A stretch of 64,000 nt of DNA, taken from positions 5,307-69,306 of the forward strand of contig JAJPJB010000031.1 in assembly GCA_021324465.1 (NCBI GenBank). The letters run 5' to 3'. Under the pieces are notes generated by a model that saw nothing but the letters and a program-made list of their open reading frames with translations, did not search any database and was not told the origin of the DNA. Positions 43,264 through 61,538 of this stretch are shown here, piece by piece (the stretch's first letter is position 1; the number at the start of each line of letters is the position of its first letter). The DNA comes from Hyphomicrobiaceae bacterium (lineage in GTDB: Bacteria; Pseudomonadota; Alphaproteobacteria; Rhizobiales; Xanthobacteraceae). The position numbers and the translations under genes were made by a program.

Positions 43264-44151
43264 ATGGCGAGAACAGCCCGGCATCGCATCTCGATCTGCG
43301 CCGCGGTGGCCTGCGCAGCGGCGACCGTCATCGCCGTGCCGCTCCCTTCGGCAGCTCAGCAGGGGGGGCCGGGTGAAGCGCTGGAATTGATCGATCCGGA
43401 CGTGCTGCGGGTATGCGCCGACCCGAACAATCTGCCGTTCTCCAATGAGAAGGGCGAAGGCTTTGAAAACAAGCTCGCCGAGTTGTTCGCGGCCAAGCTC
43501 AACAAGCGGCTCGCCTACACGTATTTTCCACAGGCCACGGGCTTCGTGCGCATGACTCTTGGTTCGCATCGGTGCGACGTCATCATGGGTTACCCGCAAG
43601 GCGGCGAGCTGGTGCAAAATACGAATCCCTATTACGAGACGGCTTATGCACTCGTCGCCAAGGCGGGCGGTCCGCTCGACGGGGTGAGTACCTTGGCTGA
43701 TGCGCGGCTCAAGGACAAACGACTCGGCATCATTGCCGGCACGCCGCCAGCCACGTATCTTGTTGCCGACGGGTTGATGGCGAAGGCCAAGCCGTATCCG
43801 CTCATGGTCGACACCCGGTTCGACTCCTCGGCCGTAACCATGATGAACGATCTCGCCTCAGGCGACATCGATGCCGGCGTGCTGTGGGGACCAATCGCAG
43901 GATATTATGCCGCCCGCGCAAATCCTCCGCTGCATGTGGCGCTGCTTCTCAAGGACACCGGCGGGCCGCATCTCGTTTACCACATCACCATGGGCGTCCG
44001 ACCATCCGATCAGAATTGGAAGAGACAGCTGAACCGGCTGATCGCCGAGAACCAACCCGCCATCAACAAGATACTGTTGGATTTCGGCGTGCCCATCCTT
44101 GACGAGCATGAGCAGCCGATCAGCGGCCATTCACTGAATCAAAAGCCATGA
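43264..44151 (+). CDS. xoxJ: MoxJ/XoxJ family periplasmic binding-protein-like protein
   Basis: LRVCADPNNLPFSNEKGEGFENKLAELFA...CDVIMGYPQG...GIIAGTPPA type-2 PBP fold typical of MxaJ/XoxJ. Confidence 0.85.
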   Translation: MARTARHRISICAAVACAAATVIAVPLPSAAQQGGPGEALELIDPDVLRVCADPNNLPFSNEKGEGFENKLAELFAAKLNKRLAYTYFPQATGFVRMTLGSHRCDVIMGYPQGGELVQNTNPYYETAYALVAKAGGPLDGVSTLADARLKDKRLGIIAGTPPATYLVADGLMAKAKPYPLMVDTRFDSSAVTMMNDLASGDIDAGVLWGPIAGYYAARANPPLHVALLLKDTGGPHLVYHITMGVRPSDQNWKRQLNRLIAENQPAINKILLDFGVPILDEHEQPISGHSLNQKP

Positions 44152-44717
44152 CGCGCCACGCCGTCGCGCTGGTCGGATCTATCGTGGTGGGAACGTGCAT
44201 TGTCGCGATTGCCGGTACACACGCACTCGGTCAAGGCGCGCCGCAAGAGCCGTCCGAGTATCGCATGCAGAATTACCGCGCGCCGACGCCGGCAACGTTG
44301 CGCGGCGCCCGCGTGGTCTCGACGGCAGAGGCCGAGAGGCTGTGGCAGGCTGGCGCAGGTTTCATCGACGTTCTGCCGCACGCGCCGCGCCCAGCCAGTT
44401 TGCCGTCCGGCACGATCTGGCAGGAAAAAGTGCGGCTCGATATTCCTGGGAGCATTTGGCTGCCGGATACCGGATACGGTGCGCTGGCAGCAGCGACTGA
44501 GAATTACCTGCGCAAAGGTCTTGAACGCCTTAGCAACGGCGACCACGCGAGGTGGCTGGTCTTCTATTGCCTCAGGGACTGCTGGATGTCTTGGAACGCC
44601 GCCAAGCGGGCTCTGACCATGGGTTATGAAAATGTCGCTTGGTATCCGGACGGTACCGACGGCTGGCAGGCCGCAGGACTTCCGCTGCAACAAGCCAAAC
44701 CGGCCGATCTCGAGTAG
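44148..44717 (+). CDS. PQQ-dependent catabolism-associated CXXCW-motif protein (rhodanese-like domain)
   Basis: ATGA overlap with xoxJ. Leader, then FIDVLPH...IPGSIWLP...LVFYCLRDCWMSWNAAKRA (C-x-x-C-W). Confidence 0.8.
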   Translation: MTRHAVALVGSIVVGTCIVAIAGTHALGQGAPQEPSEYRMQNYRAPTPATLRGARVVSTAEAERLWQAGAGFIDVLPHAPRPASLPSGTIWQEKVRLDIPGSIWLPDTGYGALAAATENYLRKGLERLSNGDHARWLVFYCLRDCWMSWNAAKRALTMGYENVAWYPDGTDGWQAAGLPLQQAKPADLE

Positions 44718-44726
44718 AGTTCCGTC

Positions 44727-45347
44727 TTAGTTCAGATTTTGTCGGATCGCTCGCGCCAGCGCGAACAGGCGCTGCTCGATCGTGGTCGGCACTTCACACA
44801 CATAGCGGATGGTCTTGCGTCGATCTTCGAATATGCGCGTGCTCCATTCGACCCGACTGGCAAGGTCGTTGACCTTTGACGGGTCCTGGTTCGGCTTGTC
44901 CTCGAGCCGGTGCAGGCTCTCCACGTCCGATTTGATCTTGTCCGCAAGCTCCTTCTCGTTCCGCGACACCCGTTCGATTCCGTCCATGATCTCGCTGCGC
45001 TGCTGGTTCAAAGTGTCGAACAATCCCGCGAAGAGCTTTGTCGCAGCGCTCTGTTTGTCACTGGGAGCGATTGCGGCCAAAAACTCGTCGATTGCCTTTT
45101 TGGCGGCATCGAGCGGGGTCCGGCGCGCGGCCAACAGGGCGACAAGATCCTTGATCTTGGGATCGTCCTGCCAGCTGTTGCCGACATCAGCGATTGACGG
45201 ACCGTCCCACATCGCCCCGACCGACAGCTCCGGCACTTTGGCCTGCACACAAGGCCAGTCAGGATAACGTGGATCGGCGGCGCGCGCGGCTGACGGCATT
45301 GCCGTCGCGAATATGGCCGAAACGAAAAGAACGCCGAGGCGATTCAT
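44727..45347 (-). CDS. Exported hypothetical protein, predicted coiled-coil, last gene of SBP/propeller operon
   Basis: MNRLGVLFVSAIFATAMPSAARA after GGAG. PDWPCVQAKVPE...heptad-like charged C-terminal half...YVCEVP. No family recognised. Confidence 0.6.
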   Translation of the reverse strand: MNRLGVLFVSAIFATAMPSAARAADPRYPDWPCVQAKVPELSVGAMWDGPSIADVGNSWQDDPKIKDLVALLAARRTPLDAAKKAIDEFLAAIAPSDKQSAATKLFAGLFDTLNQQRSEIMDGIERVSRNEKELADKIKSDVESLHRLEDKPNQDPSKVNDLASRVEWSTRIFEDRRKTIRYVCEVPTTIEQRLFALARAIRQNLN

Positions 45348-45374
45348 CGTCCACTCCAGAAAGCGCGGCACTCG

Positions 45375-46343
45375 TCAGCGGTCGGAGATCGTGACTCCCC
45401 AAGGCTGCTCGCCGACCTGGATCGTGTTCACCACCTTCAAAGCCCCGACATCGATGACCGAAACATCGTTCGACACGCCGTTGGTCGTCAGCAGATATTT
45501 CTCGTCAGGCGTGAATGCCATGTGCCAGACGCGCTCTCCGACCAGGAGATATTTCTTGACTTCATGTGTCGTGCCGTCGACCACCGCGACATGGTTCGAC
45601 GGCCCGAGCGCAACAAAACCGATCTTGCCATCGCGGGTCAGGTTTATGCCAACCGCCTGGATCGGCTCCGGGCGCATGCCGGCGATCGCAAAGGAAATCT
45701 TCTTTTTGATCGCATGCTTGACCGGATCGATAACGCTGACAGTTCCGCCGATCTCAGACGATACCCAAAGCTCCGAGCCGTCCTGCTTGAAGGCAGCGAA
45801 CCGCGGGCGCGCGTCGACCAGCACGCTCGCCACTACTTGGCGCGTGGCTGTGTCGATAAAATGCGCCATGTTTGTGGTTTCGGACGTATTGATGAGGATC
45901 TTGCCGTCAGGACTTACTGCCATGCCCTCTGGCTCGACGCCGACTTGTACATCACCAACCTGCGCGCGGCGGGCGATGTCGATGATGGTGACAGTGTTGT
46001 CGTCCTCATTCGCGACGTAAAGGAATTTTCCGTCCGGACCCTGAGTAAAAAATTCCGGATCGGGGCCAGACGGCAGCTTGTCGACTACTTCATTCGTTGT
46101 GGTATCGATCATCTGAATCGTGTCGTCGTCGCCGACCGCGACGAGCACGTATTTCTGATCCTTGGTATAGGCGATGCCGCGCGGCCGCTGGCCGACTTTG
46201 ATAGTCTTCGTCACGGCCCATTTCTCGGTATCGATGACGGACACCGTGTTGCTCTTCTCGTTCGAGACATAGGCGGTGAAGGCGCCGGCCTCGCCCGCAA
46301 GCAGCGCGCTGAGTGCCATACCGAGTACAAGCCGAAGCCACAT
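45375..46343 (-). CDS. YVTN-type beta-propeller protein (PQQ-dependent catabolism-associated)
   Basis: MWLRLVLGMALSALLAGEAGA. Repeated YVSNEKSNTVSVID / YVANEDDNTVTIID / WVSSEIGGTVSVID / LLTTNGVSNDVSVID blades. Confidence 0.8.
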   Translation of the reverse strand: MWLRLVLGMALSALLAGEAGAFTAYVSNEKSNTVSVIDTEKWAVTKTIKVGQRPRGIAYTKDQKYVLVAVGDDDTIQMIDTTTNEVVDKLPSGPDPEFFTQGPDGKFLYVANEDDNTVTIIDIARRAQVGDVQVGVEPEGMAVSPDGKILINTSETTNMAHFIDTATRQVVASVLVDARPRFAAFKQDGSELWVSSEIGGTVSVIDPVKHAIKKKISFAIAGMRPEPIQAVGINLTRDGKIGFVALGPSNHVAVVDGTTHEVKKYLLVGERVWHMAFTPDEKYLLTTNGVSNDVSVIDVGALKVVNTIQVGEQPWGVTISDR

Positions 46344-46363
46344 CGTTCCGATCTCCCGCATGA

Positions 46364-47548
46364 TCACTTCAGCTGGCATTTGGTTTCCGGGCGATCAATG
46401 CCCAACGTGTCGAGTTCCGAAAATTGATGCAGAAATCCTTCCTGCGGCGACACTGAAACGACTGTACGCCCGTCGGCAAGCAGGATCGGCTGACGAAGTT
46501 GCAGGTCCCAGTCCCGGACCGTCAATTTGCGGCCCTTGAACGCGGCGATCGAAAAGTCCGGCCCCTTCATATAGTCGAGGATCCTCTCGGGATCGGCGGT
46601 GCCGATCCTTCCCACCGCCTCGCCGATCATGCGCACTGCGGTCCACGCCTGCATGTCGAGAGGGGTCATGCGCCGGGAAAATTTTCGTTCAAACCGATCC
46701 TGCAGCTGGATCGCACCCCATTGATCCAGCGCGGCGTCCCAGCTGGTCGGCTCAAGACCCGCAGACCCTGCTACGGGTCGCGGATCGCGTGTTCGATATG
46801 GCAGATAATCGGCGAAGACTTGACTTTCGTCAGCGGCGACCAGCACATCATAATCGGGTGCCGACTGCGTGAAGAGCGGTATCTGGCTTTGAATCTGCAC
46901 AAGGCCGCTGTCTGTGCGCCGGGCACCGCCGGTATCTTCGAACACGCGCTCCTGAACGATCTTGGCGCCGAACCTGGTGGCCGATCGGCGCAGCGCATCG
47001 GCATAGAGCTTGTCCGGCGCGTGGGAACCCACGACAAGGAGCCATCGCGTCCAGTGTTTCCACACCAGATACTGCGCGAGGCCGTCCGCAAGCATGGCGC
47101 GGCTCGGTGCGGTGTGAATCACATTGGCACGGCAGTCTTGCTGACGCAGACGATCATCGATTGCGCCGGCATTGAAGAAAATGAGGCCGCGCGCGCGCCC
47201 AGCGTCACTGGCCTTGAGCAACATGTCCGCGCGAAGGTCGGAGAGGAAAAGGGAGATACCGCGATCGGCGAGTTGCATTGTCGCGGCCGCGGGATCGTCT
47301 TGGTCTTTCAGTCGCACGTCCTCAACGGAAAACGACTGATTGAGGAATTTGCCGGTCGTATTGTTGTCGTCGATCGCGAGCTGGGCGCCGGCGATGCCGT
47401 CATTGCCCGGCGGCATTTCGACGAGCGAAATCGTCTCCGTTCTGTCGGCACGGCCGAGATAGCCGATCTTGACATCGAGGGGTGCCGCGCCGGCAGGCAG
47501 GGAAATTGCGCCGCATGCAACTACGGTCGCGCAAATAGCTCGGATCAA
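46364..47548 (-). CDS. LivK-like periplasmic substrate-binding protein of the PQQ-dehydrogenase-associated ABC system
   Basis: Signal MIRAICATVVACGAISLPAGA. KIGYLGRADRTETISLVEMPPGNDGIAGAQLAIDDNNTTG type-1 PBP pattern. Confidence 0.75.
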   Translation of the reverse strand: MIRAICATVVACGAISLPAGAAPLDVKIGYLGRADRTETISLVEMPPGNDGIAGAQLAIDDNNTTGKFLNQSFSVEDVRLKDQDDPAAATMQLADRGISLFLSDLRADMLLKASDAGRARGLIFFNAGAIDDRLRQQDCRANVIHTAPSRAMLADGLAQYLVWKHWTRWLLVVGSHAPDKLYADALRRSATRFGAKIVQERVFEDTGGARRTDSGLVQIQSQIPLFTQSAPDYDVLVAADESQVFADYLPYRTRDPRPVAGSAGLEPTSWDAALDQWGAIQLQDRFERKFSRRMTPLDMQAWTAVRMIGEAVGRIGTADPERILDYMKGPDFSIAAFKGRKLTVRDWDLQLRQPILLADGRTVVSVSPQEGFLHQFSELDTLGIDRPETKCQLK

Positions 47549-47833
47549 GCGTCCACTCCCGTCTTCGCGCCCCGCACTAACCCATTATAATACTTGGAAT
47601 TCTGGTTTGTCTCACATACTATCCGGAGGGCTGCGAGGCGGCCACCCAAGACGATTTGAACGCGTCAACACGTGCAACAAGAGCCGCATGCATCGCTGCC
47701 AAAAAAACAATCGTCGGCATTGGCCCGCGTCTTCCCCTGGGGCGGTAGCGCCCAAATTGTCGGCGGCAAATTGCGCCACTTGCCGGCTGAAATAGGTGCG
47801 CACGTCCTTATTCTTTAGGGGTGGAGTTTATTG

Positions 47834-56879: not shown

Positions 56880-59378
56880 GTGCGCAATATCATTGGTGTT
56901 GCTGGTGTACGCTTGTGGGGGGTTCGGGCAGCGTTTTGCCGAGTAGTGACGTTCGCTGTCGCCGGCGTGCTTGCGACGGCGGGGATCGCGGCCGCACAGG
57001 ACAACGCGGGCACAAAGCCGAGCACCGTTAAGCTTCCAGAAATCCGCGTCATCGGCACCACGCCGGTACCGCCGCCGCGCCGGGCCGCCGCACGCCCGGC
57101 TGCGGCAAGAGCTCCGGCAGCGGCCCCGGTTACCGCCCCGGAAGCCGCCGCCAGTACCGCCGCGCCGCAGCCCGGAGCCATCGATCGCGACAAAGTTCCG
57201 GCGAATGTCCAGACGCTCTCCGCGCCCGATTTCGACCATGCCCAGGCCCCGAGCCTGCTGGACGCCATTGCGCGTGGATTGCCCGGCGTGGCGCTCGGCG
57301 ACCAGACCGGCAATGAATTCCAGCGCGATCTCAATTATCGCGGCTACATCGCCTCGCCGGTCATCGGAACACCGCAAGGACTCGCGGTCTATCAGAACGG
57401 GGTCCGCATCAATGAGGTCTTTGGCGACATCGTCAATTGGGACCTCCTGCCAGAGAACGCCGTCAATGGCATGACCCTGGTTCCGAGCAACCCGATCTAT
57501 GGGCTCAATGCCATCGGTGGCGCACTCTCGCTCGAGATGAAGAATGGCTTCACCTATCACGGCACGGAGGGAGAGGTGATGGGCGGCGCGTTCGGCCGGA
57601 TTGGCACCTCGGTCCAGGCCGGCGGCCAGGCTGGAAATTTATCCGGCTACATCACAGCCGATGCGATCAATGATGCCGGCTGGCGCAACGACTCGCCATC
57701 GTACCTGCGGCGCGTTTATGCCGACGTCGGCGCGCGCACCGACCAGACCGAATTTCATGTCGCCTTCACCGGCGCCGACAACGGATTTGGCGCGCTCGTC
57801 GCGACCCCGGTGCAGATGCTGCAGCGGGACTGGGCGAGCATCTACACCGCTCCGCAGACAACGCACAATCAATTGGCCTTCCTCACCGCGAGCGGAAGCT
57901 GGACGCCGACCGATGCGCTTACGTTCCAAACCAATCTCTACTATCGCGGATTTTGGCAGCGCCACATCGATGGCAATGGCACGGCTGCGCAGAATAGCGG
58001 ATGCCCGGATCCGGCGCTGCTGTGCTTTCCCAATCTCGACGGCACCTTGTCCAATCTTACGACAATCGGTGGCGGCACGGTCCCGGCGACCGGCAGTCTC
58101 GGGCCGCCCAGTATTTTGGCGGAGATCGATCGCACTTGGACCTCCGCCAATAGCTTCGGCGGTTCGGTACAGGCGAGTTCCTCGGCGCGGCTGTTCGATC
58201 ACGACAACAACCTCACCATCGGGGTGAGCGTCGACCGCGGCCTTGTGCAGTTCACGACCCTGAGCGAGCTTGGCACACTCAACGCCGACACGTTTCCGTT
58301 CGTAGTCCGCAGCGGCCTTTTCATCGACCAGCCCTCGGGCGACGTGGCGCCAGTCAGGCTGGGCGGCAAGACGCTCTATACCGGCGTCTACGCGACGGAT
58401 ACGTTCGATGTCACGCCGCGCCTTTCCCTGACTACTGGCGCGCGATTCAACCTCGCGCAGATCGGTTTGCAGGACGAATTCGGCGACAATCCCGGCCTTA
58501 ACGGCAGCCACGCCTATAGCCGCCTCAACCCCACAGTCGGCGCGACGTATAAGCTGACGCCCGACCTCATCGTCTATGGCGGCTATTCGGAAGCAAACCG
58601 TGCCCCGACGCCGCTTGAGCTCTCCTGCTCTGACCCGACACGGCCCTGCTTGATCGACAATGCACTGGTCGGCGATCCACCGCTTCAACAAGTGGTGTCG
58701 CATACATTCGAGGCGGGCTTGCGCGGACACCATGATACGGCGAACAGCTCGCTCGCCTGGACGATCGGCGCATTTCACGCGCTGAACACCAACGACATCA
58801 TCGATGTTGCAAGCCCCCTGCCCGGTCACGAGTTCTTCCAGAATGGCGGCCCGACGCTGCGGAAGGGAATCGAAGCCAGCCTGTCCTACAAATGGAATCG
58901 CTGGAACCTTTACGCCAACTACATCTGGGTCGACGCGACCTATCTGAGCGCGTTGACGTTGTCGTCACCGAACAATCCCTTTGCCGATGCCAATGGCAAC
59001 ATTCAGGTCACTCCCGGAGATCATATCCCCGGGATTCCGAACTACCGGTTCAAGACCGGCTTCAATTATCAGATCACCGATTCTTGGAAGTTTGGCGCGG
59101 ACATCTATGCGATCGGCAGCCAATGGCTGGTCGGCGACAGCTCAAACCTGAACCCGAAGGTACCGGCCTATTGGATCGCGAACCTGCATTCGTCTTATCA
59201 ACTGTCGAAGAATGTCGAACTGTTTGGCCTTGTGAAAAACCTGTTCAATCGCCACTACTACGTGTCCGGTACATTCTTCGATACCAATTCATTTCCCTAT
59301 CTCAACCTGACCGATCCGCGCACCTTCCTTCCGGGCATGCCGCTCGCCGTTTACGCCGGGTTGCGCGGTAGGTGGTAG
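56880..59378 (+). CDS. TonB-dependent outer-membrane receptor with Pro/Ala-rich N-terminal linker (LutH-like candidate)
   Basis: Signal ...VLATAGIAAAQD, TonB-box-like VKLPEIRVIG, about 45-aa P/A-rich linker, plug (LDAIARGLPGVALGDQTGNEFQRDLNYRGY), barrel ending ...AVYAGLRGRW. Start 56880 (GTG) or 56946 (GTG). Confidence 0.85.
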   Translation: MRNIIGVAGVRLWGVRAAFCRVVTFAVAGVLATAGIAAAQDNAGTKPSTVKLPEIRVIGTTPVPPPRRAAARPAAARAPAAAPVTAPEAAASTAAPQPGAIDRDKVPANVQTLSAPDFDHAQAPSLLDAIARGLPGVALGDQTGNEFQRDLNYRGYIASPVIGTPQGLAVYQNGVRINEVFGDIVNWDLLPENAVNGMTLVPSNPIYGLNAIGGALSLEMKNGFTYHGTEGEVMGGAFGRIGTSVQAGGQAGNLSGYITADAINDAGWRNDSPSYLRRVYADVGARTDQTEFHVAFTGADNGFGALVATPVQMLQRDWASIYTAPQTTHNQLAFLTASGSWTPTDALTFQTNLYYRGFWQRHIDGNGTAAQNSGCPDPALLCFPNLDGTLSNLTTIGGGTVPATGSLGPPSILAEIDRTWTSANSFGGSVQASSSARLFDHDNNLTIGVSVDRGLVQFTTLSELGTLNADTFPFVVRSGLFIDQPSGDVAPVRLGGKTLYTGVYATDTFDVTPRLSLTTGARFNLAQIGLQDEFGDNPGLNGSHAYSRLNPTVGATYKLTPDLIVYGGYSEANRAPTPLELSCSDPTRPCLIDNALVGDPPLQQVVSHTFEAGLRGHHDTANSSLAWTIGAFHALNTNDIIDVASPLPGHEFFQNGGPTLRKGIEASLSYKWNRWNLYANYIWVDATYLSALTLSSPNNPFADANGNIQVTPGDHIPGIPNYRFKTGFNYQITDSWKFGADIYAIGSQWLVGDSSNLNPKVPAYWIANLHSSYQLSKNVELFGLVKNLFNRHYYVSGTFFDTNSFPYLNLTDPRTFLPGMPLAVYAGLRGRW

Positions 59379-59444: not shown

Positions 59445-59849
59445 ATGGTTTCCCGACGCAAGGTAATCGCGGTAGCAATCACGGGTCTAATCACCGCGGC
59501 TACCGCGGCCCGTGCATGGGCGAAATGGGCGTCGCCGGTCGCGCGCTTCGACACCGACAAGGACAATACTGTCGACCTCGCCGAGGCCAAGAAGGCTGCC
59601 GGCAATCTGTTCGACAGGCTCGACACCGACAAGGACGGCACTCTCGATGTCAGGGAATTGCGCGGCAGGCTGAGCCGCAAGGACTTTGCGGCCGCCGATC
59701 CGGACAAGGACAAGACCTTGAGCAAGGACGAATATTTCGCGATTGTCGAGCAGCGCTTCAAAGCTGCCGACGGCGACAATGACGGCAGCATCAGCGCGGC
59801 CGAGTTTCGTACGCCCGCCGGGCGGGCCTTGCTCCGGTTGCTCGATTAA
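59445..59849 (+). CDS. lanM: Exported four-EF-hand protein, lanmodulin-like
   Basis: Loops DTDKDNTVDLAE, DTDKDGTLDVRE, DPDKDKTLSKDE and DGDNDGSISAAE spaced by 12-13 residues. C-terminal FRTPAGRALLRLLD. Aligns by eye along its length with my recollection of M. extorquens LanM. Confidence 0.75.
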   Translation: MVSRRKVIAVAITGLITAATAARAWAKWASPVARFDTDKDNTVDLAEAKKAAGNLFDRLDTDKDGTLDVRELRGRLSRKDFAAADPDKDKTLSKDEYFAIVEQRFKAADGDNDGSISAAEFRTPAGRALLRLLD

Positions 59850-59866: not shown

Positions 59867-60610
59867 CTATTGCGGGCCCGTCATCGCCAGGAAAGCCTGC
59901 TCGATCGTGCTCGCGCCGCAGTCCGCAACAAGCCGGGCCGGAGTCGTATCGGCGAGCACCTTGCCATGATGCAGCACAATGACGCGATCAGCTCCGGCTA
60001 CCTCGTCGCAAAGGTGGGTGGCCCATAGCACGGCGACCGAGCGGTCGGTGCGCATGCTCAACATCAACTTGAGAAGATCGCTGCGGCTCGCCGGATCGAG
60101 ACCGACGGTCGGCTCGTCCATCAGCAGCACCCGTGGATCGTGCAACAGGGCGCGCGCGAGTTCGACCCGACGGCGGTTGCCGCCGCTCAGGTGCGCCGTC
60201 TTGTCGTGAGCACGTTCGGCGAGCCCAAGCCGCGCTAGCTCCTTCTCGATGCGTTGCTTGGCCATGGCGCGCGGAATTCCGTGCAACCCGGCGTGGAACA
60301 AGAGATTGCCGGTAACGCTCAATTCGAGGTCGAGCGTCGGCTGCTGGAAGACGATGCCCAGCTTTGCCAAAGCCGGCACCGGGTTACGCAGCATATCTTG
60401 GCCGACGATCTCGATGCGACCGGAATCCGGCACAAACAGACCAGATAGCATCTGAAACAGCGTGGTCTTGCCGGCGCCGTTTGGACCAAGAAGGGCGATG
60501 AACTCGCCGGCGAATGCGCGCAGGCTGACGCCGTCCACCGCGCGAATAGCGCCATAGGTCTTTACAACGCCATCGAGAAGAAGCGCCGGCGCGAGCTGTT
60601 CGGTGGCCAT
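59867..60610 (-). CDS. ABC-2-type transporter ATP-binding protein (PQQ-dehydrogenase-system/PedB-like)
   Basis: MATEQLAPALLLDGVVKTYG...GPNGAGKTT...LSGGNRRRVELARAL...LLMDEPTVGLD. Confidence 0.85.
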   Translation of the reverse strand: MATEQLAPALLLDGVVKTYGAIRAVDGVSLRAFAGEFIALLGPNGAGKTTLFQMLSGLFVPDSGRIEIVGQDMLRNPVPALAKLGIVFQQPTLDLELSVTGNLLFHAGLHGIPRAMAKQRIEKELARLGLAERAHDKTAHLSGGNRRRVELARALLHDPRVLLMDEPTVGLDPASRSDLLKLMLSMRTDRSVAVLWATHLCDEVAGADRVIVLHHGKVLADTTPARLVADCGASTIEQAFLAMTGPQ

Positions 60611-60695
60611 CTCGTTAGAGCCCCTGGCTTGCAAGCCGTCCTAATTAAGACTTAGGCTTAAGCGGATGCAATAAACGATCGCCAGCAGGTCGATC

Positions 60696-61538
60696 ATGGC
60701 AAAAACCCCGGCGGCGCCTGGACAGGTTACTCACACACTGCGCGCGCTGCGCGCGGTGACCACGCGCGAGATCCTCAAATTCGTGCAACAGCGTGGACGG
60801 CTCCTTTCTGCTTTGGTGCGTCCGCTGATGTGGCTCGCGGTGTTCGCCGCCGGCTTTTACAACGTCTTCGGTGTCTCGATCATCCCGCCTTATAAGGTGT
60901 ACATCACCTACCAGGTCTATATCGTGCCTGGGCTGCTCGGCATCATCCTTCTGTTTCACGGCATGCAATCCTCGCTCTCGATGGTCTACGACCGCGAGAT
61001 GGGGGTGATGCGCCTTCTTCTGACTGCGCCGCTGCCGCGATGGGTTCTGCTGGGATGCAAGCTCGCGGCCGGAACCGCGCTCTCTGTGATCACTTGCTAC
61101 GTTTTCCTTGCGATCTGCATTTTCTTCGACGTGACGTTCGACCCGATCGCCTGGCTCGAAGTGCTGCCGGCGCTGATCATGTCGGGGCTTATGCTCGGTG
61201 CGCTTTGGCTGTTTCTGTCCGTCTACATTCGACAGGTTGAGAATTTCGCAGGCGCAATGAACTTCGTGATGTTCCCGATGTTCTTTTTCTCCTCCGCGCT
61301 CTATCCGCTGTGGAAGCTGCGCGAGGGCGGCTCAGAACTCATTTACTACGTGGCGCTCGCAAATCCTTTCACCTACGCGGTCGAGCTTATTCGCTTTGCC
61401 CTCTACAGCCAGTTTGAGCCGGTTTCAGCCGCCGTCGTGACAGGCGCCACCGTGCTGTTCTTTCTGCTTGCAGTGCTCGGCTACAACCCACAACGCGGCA
61501 TGATCCGCCGGACCGGGCCGGCCCCGCAGCCAGCGTAG
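60696..61538 (+). CDS. ABC-2-type transporter permease (PedC-like)
   Basis: 280 aa, six predicted TM segments. REILKFVQQRGRLLSALVRPLMWLAVFAAGF typical ABC-2 N-terminus. Divergent from its ATPase. Confidence 0.8.
   Translation: MAKTPAAPGQVTHTLRALRAVTTREILKFVQQRGRLLSALVRPLMWLAVFAAGFYNVFGVSIIPPYKVYITYQVYIVPGLLGIILLFHGMQSSLSMVYDREMGVMRLLLTAPLPRWVLLGCKLAAGTALSVITCYVFLAICIFFDVTFDPIAWLEVLPALIMSGLMLGALWLFLSVYIRQVENFAGAMNFVMFPMFFFSSALYPLWKLREGGSELIYYVALANPFTYAVELIRFALYSQFEPVSAAVVTGATVLFFLLAVLGYNPQRGMIRRTGPAPQPA

Follow-up and report, generated by a model that had tools for sequence, protein, structure and literature searches.

What is the role of a putatively exported 206-amino-acid (aa) protein that is encoded last in an operon, behind a periplasmic binding protein and a YVTN beta-propeller, with its stop codon 9 bp from that of a convergent xox operon? 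The locus occupies positions 44148-47548 of a 64,000-nucleotide (nt) stretch of DNA (hereafter the window; contig JAJPJB010000031.1, positions 5,307 to 69,306) from the 99.7% complete genome of an uncultured Xanthobacteraceae-type soil bacterium (GCA_021324465.1). A first reading of this DNA, made from the sequence alone and without database searches (the sequence-only reading), grouped the binding protein and the propeller with a CXXCW protein encoded on the facing strand, assigned them to lanthanide, or else pyrroloquinoline quinone (PQQ) or alcohol, handling, and took the 206-aa protein for an undescribed accessory component. Here we conclude that the minus-strand operon (44727-47548) is lutA-lutB-lutG, encoding periplasmic components of the lanthanide lut/ped ATP-binding cassette (ABC) system, and that the 206-aa protein is the orthologue of LutG, a reading to which we give a probability of about 0.8. 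The third gene had in fact been described: lutG was named, knocked out and complemented in Methylorubrum extorquens AM1 in 2020 (PMC7391723).

Identification of the lutA-lutB-lutG operon

As first described, the operon consists of a binding-protein gene, a YVTN propeller gene and a gene for a 206-aa protein with a signal-like segment and cysteines in the contexts WPC and YVCE, all of which can be read in the sequence. The first gene (46364-47548, minus strand) encodes LutA, a pedA1-type periplasmic substrate-binding protein of 394 aa (TIGR03863, 483.3 bits against a cut-off of 413.6), which is full-length, the match covering profile positions 3-347 of 347. LutA also matches Pfam Peripla_BP_6 (E-value (E) 4.8e-17), the LivK-like fold class, and its match to the true LivK-type model is negligible (E 0.0067). 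The second gene (45375-46379, minus strand) encodes LutB, a pedA2-type YVTN beta-propeller of 334 aa (TIGR03866, 503.8 bits, cut-off 287.3) that is 61-62% identical to Methylobacterium LutB in tblastn. LutA and LutB of the M. extorquens group score 498 and 528.8 bits on the same two models. With an ATPase, a permease, a TonB-dependent receptor and a lanmodulin in the same window, these assignments bear out the earlier proposal that the binding protein and the propeller are periplasmic components of a lanthanide-uptake ABC system.

The last gene (44727-45347, minus strand) starts at the ATG at 45347, with GGAG 8-11 nt upstream, and stops at 44727-44729; an alternative in-frame GTG start at 45371 would give a protein of 214 aa. 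There is a single copy in the genome. Three of the four genes of the locus, the CXXCW gene included, fall in curated families above cut-off in hidden Markov model searches (TIGR03865, TIGR03866 and TIGR03863), and neither Pfam nor NCBIfam has a model for the 206-aa protein. Its lone family match, to ATG16 (E 0.005, below threshold), was rejected as noise from long helices.

The gene is named by comparison with the lut cluster of M. extorquens AM1, which comprises lutA to lutI (META1p1778-1787; PMC7391723). In AM1, lutE and lutF encode the ATPase and the permease, lutG (1784) is listed as an 'exported protein' and lutH (1785) encodes the TonB receptor (PMC7391723, Table 1); LanD is META1p1781 (PMC11551332) and lanM is META1_1786 (PMC9260416). 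A homologue of the 206-aa protein from a sister genome, used as query, retrieved proteins of Methylobacterium and Methylorubrum, including the 209-aa P0292, which is encoded between the permease and the TonB receptor in CP029173.1. The CP029173.1 locus (L177) has ten genes in the published lutA-lutI order, with products of 420, 335, 144, 80, 249, 297, 209, 839, 133 and 119 aa, among which the substrate-binding protein, propeller, ATPase and permease match TIGR03863, TIGR03866, TIGR03864 and TIGR03861. Its 80-aa protein aligns with M. extorquens LanD (landiscernin), differing at five positions over the full 61 residues of 9c8w (E 1.3e-30), and its 133-aa protein matches lanmodulin (LanM; 6mi5, E 7.9e-63). 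Because LanD anchors 1781 and LanM anchors 1786, the four intervening genes are lutE, lutF, lutG and lutH, and P0292, a near-AM1 orthologue, is therefore LutG (1784). The window protein is 42% identical to P0292 over 182 residues (BLASTP, E 2e-53) and, judged by its sequence, is orthologous to LutG (MexAM1_META1p1784; Mext_1852 in strain PA1).

The two LutG proteins are homologous over the whole mature protein and similar in length (206 and 209 aa), and have in common the predicted signal peptide, the DWPC motif and a C-terminal Cys-Glu-x-Pro motif. Their genes agree in transcriptional direction and in standing at the end of an operon within a lut-type cluster. They differ in their neighbors: lutG of the window directly follows lutB, with lutE and lutF 12 kb away as a divergent pair, whereas the M. 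extorquens order is lutF-lutG-lutH. The M. extorquens cluster also has lutC and lutD, neither of which is detectable in the window genome; single-sequence searches, which a very divergent copy could escape, found no homologue there of LanD or LutC, a cupredoxin-like protein. Of the accessory genes, this genome has kept only lutG in addition to lanM.

A Methylobacterium-type genome of the same order encodes, in addition to the substrate-binding protein, propeller, ATPase, permease, LutG homologue and TonB receptor, a cupredoxin-like protein (144-174 aa) and an 80-aa protein that matches landiscernin 9c8w (E 5e-19). In one Methylobacterium-type locus (L170, 13155-14069), lutH is followed not by lanM but by an open reading frame whose product, putatively exported, is rich in Ser, Ala and Pro and has two cysteines; the sister genomes (L173 and L174) do carry lanM in this place.

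Conservation and distribution of LutG

Scoring of 8000 candidates from a collection of 90% identity clusters gave more than 6500 homologues of the 206-aa protein at E<=0.001, nearly all of them named 'hypothetical protein'. A profile search of 1.84 billion representatives of 50% identity clusters gave 1171 members of the LutG family, 298 of them at E<=1e-30. In codon alignments of lutG with orthologues of 57-72% identity, the nonsynonymous rate (dN) is 0.19-0.39 and the synonymous rate (dS) 0.9-1.75, giving a dN/dS of ~0.12-0.26, and mismatches concentrate at third codon positions. This ratio, together with the number of homologues, indicates that the reading frame is under purifying selection and is not a chance frame.

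The operon position of lutG is likewise conserved. In 80 related loci of Xanthobacteraceae and Bradyrhizobium, the lutG homologue is always the last gene of its operon, and in 77 it directly follows lutF or lutB, which answers the question of synteny that the sequence-only reading had raised. The gene upstream is the ABC-2 permease in 52 of these loci, ordered substrate-binding protein-propeller-ATPase-permease-lutG, and the propeller in 25, ordered substrate-binding protein-propeller-lutG as in the window. The shorter arrangement is common to the closest relatives of the window genome (L009-L028), and Bradyrhizobium has all five genes in one operon. Of 20 loci from other families of the same order, 13 have lutG after the permease and five have it after the propeller (18/20). 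In other alphaproteobacterial orders, where several of the 15 loci come from small genomes, it follows the permease in 12, at an identity of only 26-35%. The position is thus after lutF, or after lutB where lutEF has moved away, as here. In the small-genome alphaproteobacteria (L110-L121), 300-700 bp lie between the permease match and the LutG match, and lutG is directly followed by pqqB/pqqC; the interval may contain a longer LutG N-terminus or another small gene.

The distribution of LutG was examined in 401 genomes of the same order; since related genomes are not independent, the counts describe a pattern and are not a statistic. LutG is present in 101 of the 401 genomes and the TIGR03866 propeller in 136; all 101 LutG genomes also carry the propeller, and LutG occurs alone in none. 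In a phylum-level sample, also of 401 genomes, LutG-family matches are confined to Alphaproteobacteria. The TIGR03863, TIGR03866 and TIGR03865 families, named as associated with PQQ-dependent catabolism, each have a full-length member above cut-off among the window neighbors of lutG; the LutG family lacks a curated model, yet within Alphaproteobacteria its link to the propeller family is no less tight. Genomes with and without LutG occur within a single genus, g306 (G349, G477, G511 and G541 versus G438), and it follows that LutG has been lost or gained repeatedly. It is nevertheless more widely conserved than the better-studied LanD, and than LutC.

Phenotypes of lutG and of related transporters

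In AM1, lutG was recovered in a transposon selection, and the lutG mutant, growing on methanol with La, shows a 12-h lag and a growth rate of 0.03 per h, versus 0.16 per h for the wild type (PMC7391723). The defect is severe but non-lethal, resembles that of the lutA and lutB mutants, and is complemented in trans (PMC7391723). The growth failure of AM1 mutants in the orthologous transporter is specific to lanthanide-dependent conditions, and La builds up in their periplasm (PMC7391723).

The Pseudomonas putida transporter PedA1A2BC, encoded by four genes, is required for lanthanide-dependent growth at nanomolar La, and its mutant is rescued by 100-fold more La (PMC6839425); the requirement at low concentration had been correctly stated in the sequence-only reading. 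The binding protein, YVTN propeller, ATPase and ABC-2 permease of P. putida KT2440 belong to the same curated families as those of the window. The two systems differ in that pedA1, pedA2, pedB and pedC form a contiguous four-gene operon without LutG, whereas the window has lutG in addition and its families are split between 45375-47548 and 59867-61538.

Sequence and structure of LutG

Direct reading of the LutG N-terminus reveals a basic start, a hydrophobic core and an ARA/AD site (...MPSAARA/ADPRY), which would leave a mature protein of 183 residues. The equivalent N-terminal segment, or a membrane anchor, is present in all LutG homologues. Long variants of 300-390 aa (P0235, P0215, P0195, P0171 and P0239) consist of an N-terminal anchor or signal, a linker of 100-200 residues rich in Ala, Pro, Glu and Gly, and the DWPC domain. 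The membrane anchor that replaces the cleaved signal in some homologues suggests that LutG acts near the inner membrane. A search of the long homologues for Rosetta-stone fusions found no second folded domain, only the anchor and low-complexity linkers. A Phage_integrase match at the far end of a 284-aa homologue was set aside as probably a mis-joined gene call.

The AlphaFold2 model of LutG has a predicted local distance difference test score (pLDDT) of 86.7 when built from 21 sequences, and a pLDDT of 92.7 with a predicted template modelling score (pTM) of 0.82 when built from 44 diverse sequences. It comprises an extended but confidently placed N-terminal segment (residues ~25-60) and helices at 63-73, 79-91, 95-150, 156-183 and 186-203, which form a compact long-helix bundle. 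The coiled-coil label first given to the protein is correct in so far as its C-terminal two thirds are helical, but overstated in view of this compact bundle. Foldseek searches of the Protein Data Bank (PDB) with two LutG models gave best hits of E 0.05-0.19 and template modelling (TM) scores <=0.45, to BAR domains and designed bundles, and hence no solved relative; nothing was found among viral models at E<=0.001. Sequence searches for solved structures, with phmmer and with profiles, returned only designed helical bundles and coiled coils.

The invariant and near-invariant positions of the family are W31, P32, C33, Q35, W47, G49, R75, F106, R117, G123, R171, R176, C184, P187, E191 and R193. 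The two cysteines, C33 in DWPC and C184 in YVCE, lie 151 residues apart, in the N-terminal segment and the last helix hairpin. Across the family there is no conserved carboxylate cluster like those of the Ln3+ sites of LanD, LanM and XoxF. With an invariant set made up of Arg, Trp, Cys, Pro and Gly, LutG looks better suited to an anionic ligand or a protein partner than to bare Ln3+.

Possible roles of LutG

We propose tentatively that mature LutG serves as an adaptor in the periplasm, either soluble or close to the membrane, and that its conserved N-terminal DWPC-Q-KVP...W-GP segment would be pinned onto the long-helix bundle by a C33-C184 disulfide. Together with LutA and LutB, LutG would deliver lanthanide, probably as a complex with an anionic chelator, to LutEF, a permease of the exporter type, and the system would supply lanthanide to the XoxF methanol dehydrogenase encoded next door. 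We consider this specific mechanism clearly less likely than not. A broader form of the proposal is less likely again and should be taken as speculative: LutG may be the founder of an unmodelled, Alphaproteobacteria-restricted family of adaptors that let an exporter-type ABC-2 permease (LutEF) act as a binding-protein-dependent importer, docking LutA and/or the LutB propeller, or an anionic lanthanide-chelator complex, through an Arg/Trp surface and the disulfide-pinned N-terminal segment.

Alternatively, LutG could be a lanthanide-binding metallochaperone like LanD or lanmodulin, which would hold Ln3+ by carboxylates and hand it to LutA or XoxF. LutG is predicted to be periplasmic and is encoded within a lanthanide-uptake cluster; E125, D155, E174, D175 and E185 are >=90% conserved within Xanthobacteraceae; the failure to detect LanD and LutC in the genome raises the possibility that another protein fills their role; and LutB and LutG have been called 'alternative periplasmic binding proteins', as speculation only (PMC8969499). 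LanD (META1p1781; PDB 9c8w) is, as is predicted for LutG, a small helical protein that is Sec-exported to the periplasm, has one disulfide and is found in lanthanide-uptake clusters. However, LanD is a three-helix bundle of 6.8 kDa (PMC11551332) and roughly 60 mature residues with a Glu-rich metal site, whereas LutG of the window is three times larger and does not match 9c8w even at E<=10, and an identity of the 206-aa protein with LanD was therefore rejected. Family-wide, E191 is the only near-invariant acidic position. LutG lacks an EF-hand and a LanD-like ExxExE motif, and in neither sequence nor fold does it resemble LanD, LanM or any PDB metalloprotein. Finally, growth is unaffected in mutants of the known Ln binders LanD and LanM but suffers as badly in the lutG mutant as in the lutA mutant (PMC7391723). 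We consider a metallochaperone role improbable.

Several observations weigh against the assignment of LutG to the transporter or against the role proposed for it. The propeller occurs without LutG, in some cases as a high-scoring LutB-type match, in 35 of the 136 propeller genomes of the order, one of which has an otherwise complete lutA-B-C-E-F operon (G350); no candidate for a divergent LutG copy was found after the permease of that operon (L204, G350:C1:3762000-3781999). Most of the propeller-only genomes inspected pair the propeller with more distant PQQ dehydrogenases. Because of these 35 genomes, and because PedA1A2BC of P. putida works with four genes, LutG is an accessory part of the system and not a core part. 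The lutG phenotype was seen in a single organism, whose LutG shares 42% identity with that of the window, and no biochemistry of LutG was found in the literature searched. The adaptor mechanism is drawn from gene position and residue conservation, and the C33-C184 disulfide is predicted from two invariant cysteines. Mature LutG is also mildly acidic (isoelectric point ~5.6, ~30 Asp+Glu), which speaks for the metallochaperone and would allow direct metal binding.

The CXXCW protein and the convergent junction

On the plus strand, xoxJ (43264-44151), encoding a periplasmic binding protein (TIGR03871, 296.8 bits, cut-off 212), is the penultimate gene of a xoxF-xoxG-xoxJ-CXXCW operon. The last gene (44148-44717) is joined to it by an ATGA overlap at 44148-44151 and encodes an exported rhodanese-like protein of 189 aa (PQQ_CXXCW family; TIGR03865, 227.4 bits, cut-off 128). 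This protein contains VFYCLRDCWMSW, with the motif YCLRDCW (C-L-R-D-C-W), and matches Pfam Rhodanese at residues 99-176 (E 1.4e-5). The coupling to xoxJ, the motif and the 9-bp distance to the minus-strand operon, between 44717 and 44727, are all as first reported. The grouping of the CXXCW protein with the transporter is not upheld: its gene shows translational coupling to xoxJ and is found on the xox strand in every locus compared, and the protein is part of the convergent xoxFGJ operon and of the database-defined set of 'quinoprotein relay' proteins that includes a SoxYZ-like carrier and a metallo-beta-lactamase (MBL) hydrolase. Its closeness to lutG reflects a conserved convergent junction, with lutG facing the CXXCW gene in 70 of the 80 related loci and xoxJ in five.

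The CXXCW gene ends with a TAG at 44717, and no terminator-like hairpin was found on either strand of the 9-bp junction with the lutG stop (z-scores -0.49 and +0.99). With the stops so close and no such hairpin between them, the 3' ends of the xox and lut transcripts must overlap (44715-44729). Antisense interference is possible between the two operons, which are reported as oppositely lanthanide-responsive.

The junction also bears on a second alternative, in which LutG would function in the thiol-based relay of the xox side (CXXCW rhodanese, SoxYZ-like carrier and MBL hydrolase), acting through its two cysteines as a partner in redox or persulfide chemistry. Consistent with this are the 9 bp between the stop codons, the frequency of the convergent pair, the invariance of both cysteines, and two genomes of the order (L168 and L169) in which lutG adjoins xox/relay genes without nearby lut genes. 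However, lutG is co-directional with and directly downstream of lut genes and is never found within the CXXCW operon; the Methylobacterium and Methylorubrum loci place it between lutF and lutH and contain neither a CXXCW gene nor a xox gene; the lutG mutant of AM1 has the phenotype of transporter mutants; and a separation of 151 residues, from the N-terminal segment to the last helix hairpin, is typical for a structural disulfide of a periplasmic protein. A role in the relay is very improbable.

Other components of the lut/xox island

The lut ABC genes of the window are split between the lutA-lutB-lutG operon and a divergent lutE/lutF pair ~12 kb away, beside lutH-lanM. The pedB-type ATPase LutE (59867-60634, minus strand; TIGR03864, 315.8 bits, cut-off 302.25) is the sole match over the TIGR03864 cut-off among 116 ABC ATPase matches in the genome, and is divergent from the pedC-type ABC-2 permease LutF (60696-61538, plus strand; TIGR03861, 353.8 bits, cut-off 241.35). 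A lutH-like gene at 56880-59378 (plus strand), outside the coordinates of the reported locus, encodes a protein that matches TonB-dependent receptor models and is 40-47% identical to the receptors flanking lutG in Bradyrhizobium and Methylobacterium loci. It is followed by a gene for a lanmodulin-like EF-hand protein (59445-59849, plus strand), with 54-58% identity in tblastn to the lanM-slot genes of Methylobacterium lut clusters. The flanks carry xoxF, xoxG, xoxJ, the SoxYZ-like carrier and MBL hydrolase genes (TIGR04557, TIGR04559), tetrahydromethanopterin (H4MPT)/methanofuran genes and pqq genes. Upstream of lutA, a putative promoter at 47584-47613 (minus strand; GAGACA-18-TATAAT for -35/-10, 10 of 12 positions) lies 36 nt before the start codon; this sigma-70-like candidate for the operon promoter is a consensus match only.

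That the binding protein, propeller and LutG handle PQQ or an alcohol-derived substrate instead of a lanthanide could be argued from the TIGRFAM names, which cite a 'PQQ-dependent alcohol dehydrogenase system', from the early link of the Pseudomonas system to 2-phenylethanol metabolism, as indicated by a citation in PMC6850437, from pqqB and pqqC after lutG in small-genome alphaproteobacteria, and from the conserved arginines, which could bind a tricarboxylate such as PQQ, but this is as improbable as a relay function, given the lanthanide-specific defect and periplasmic La of the orthologous transporter mutants (PMC7391723), the rescue of the P. putida mutant by added La (PMC6839425) and the coupling of the system in the window to a lutH-like receptor and a lanmodulin.

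Significance

For the window itself, the outcome is a correct annotation of lutA-lutB-lutG, which belong to a complete lut/xox island and represent an already known system in an unexceptional form. Research on lanthanide uptake is active, in connection with 'new life metal' biology and rare-earth recovery, and lutB and lutG stand out as strong-phenotype lut genes for which a molecular role has yet to be proposed. Because it is widely conserved and linked to the propeller, has a confident helical model without a solved relative, and has invariant positions rich in Arg and Trp, LutG is a well-defined target for biochemistry, and it is also a candidate for a curated family model. If the adaptor proposal is true, LutG would represent a new class of ABC-transporter accessory subunit.

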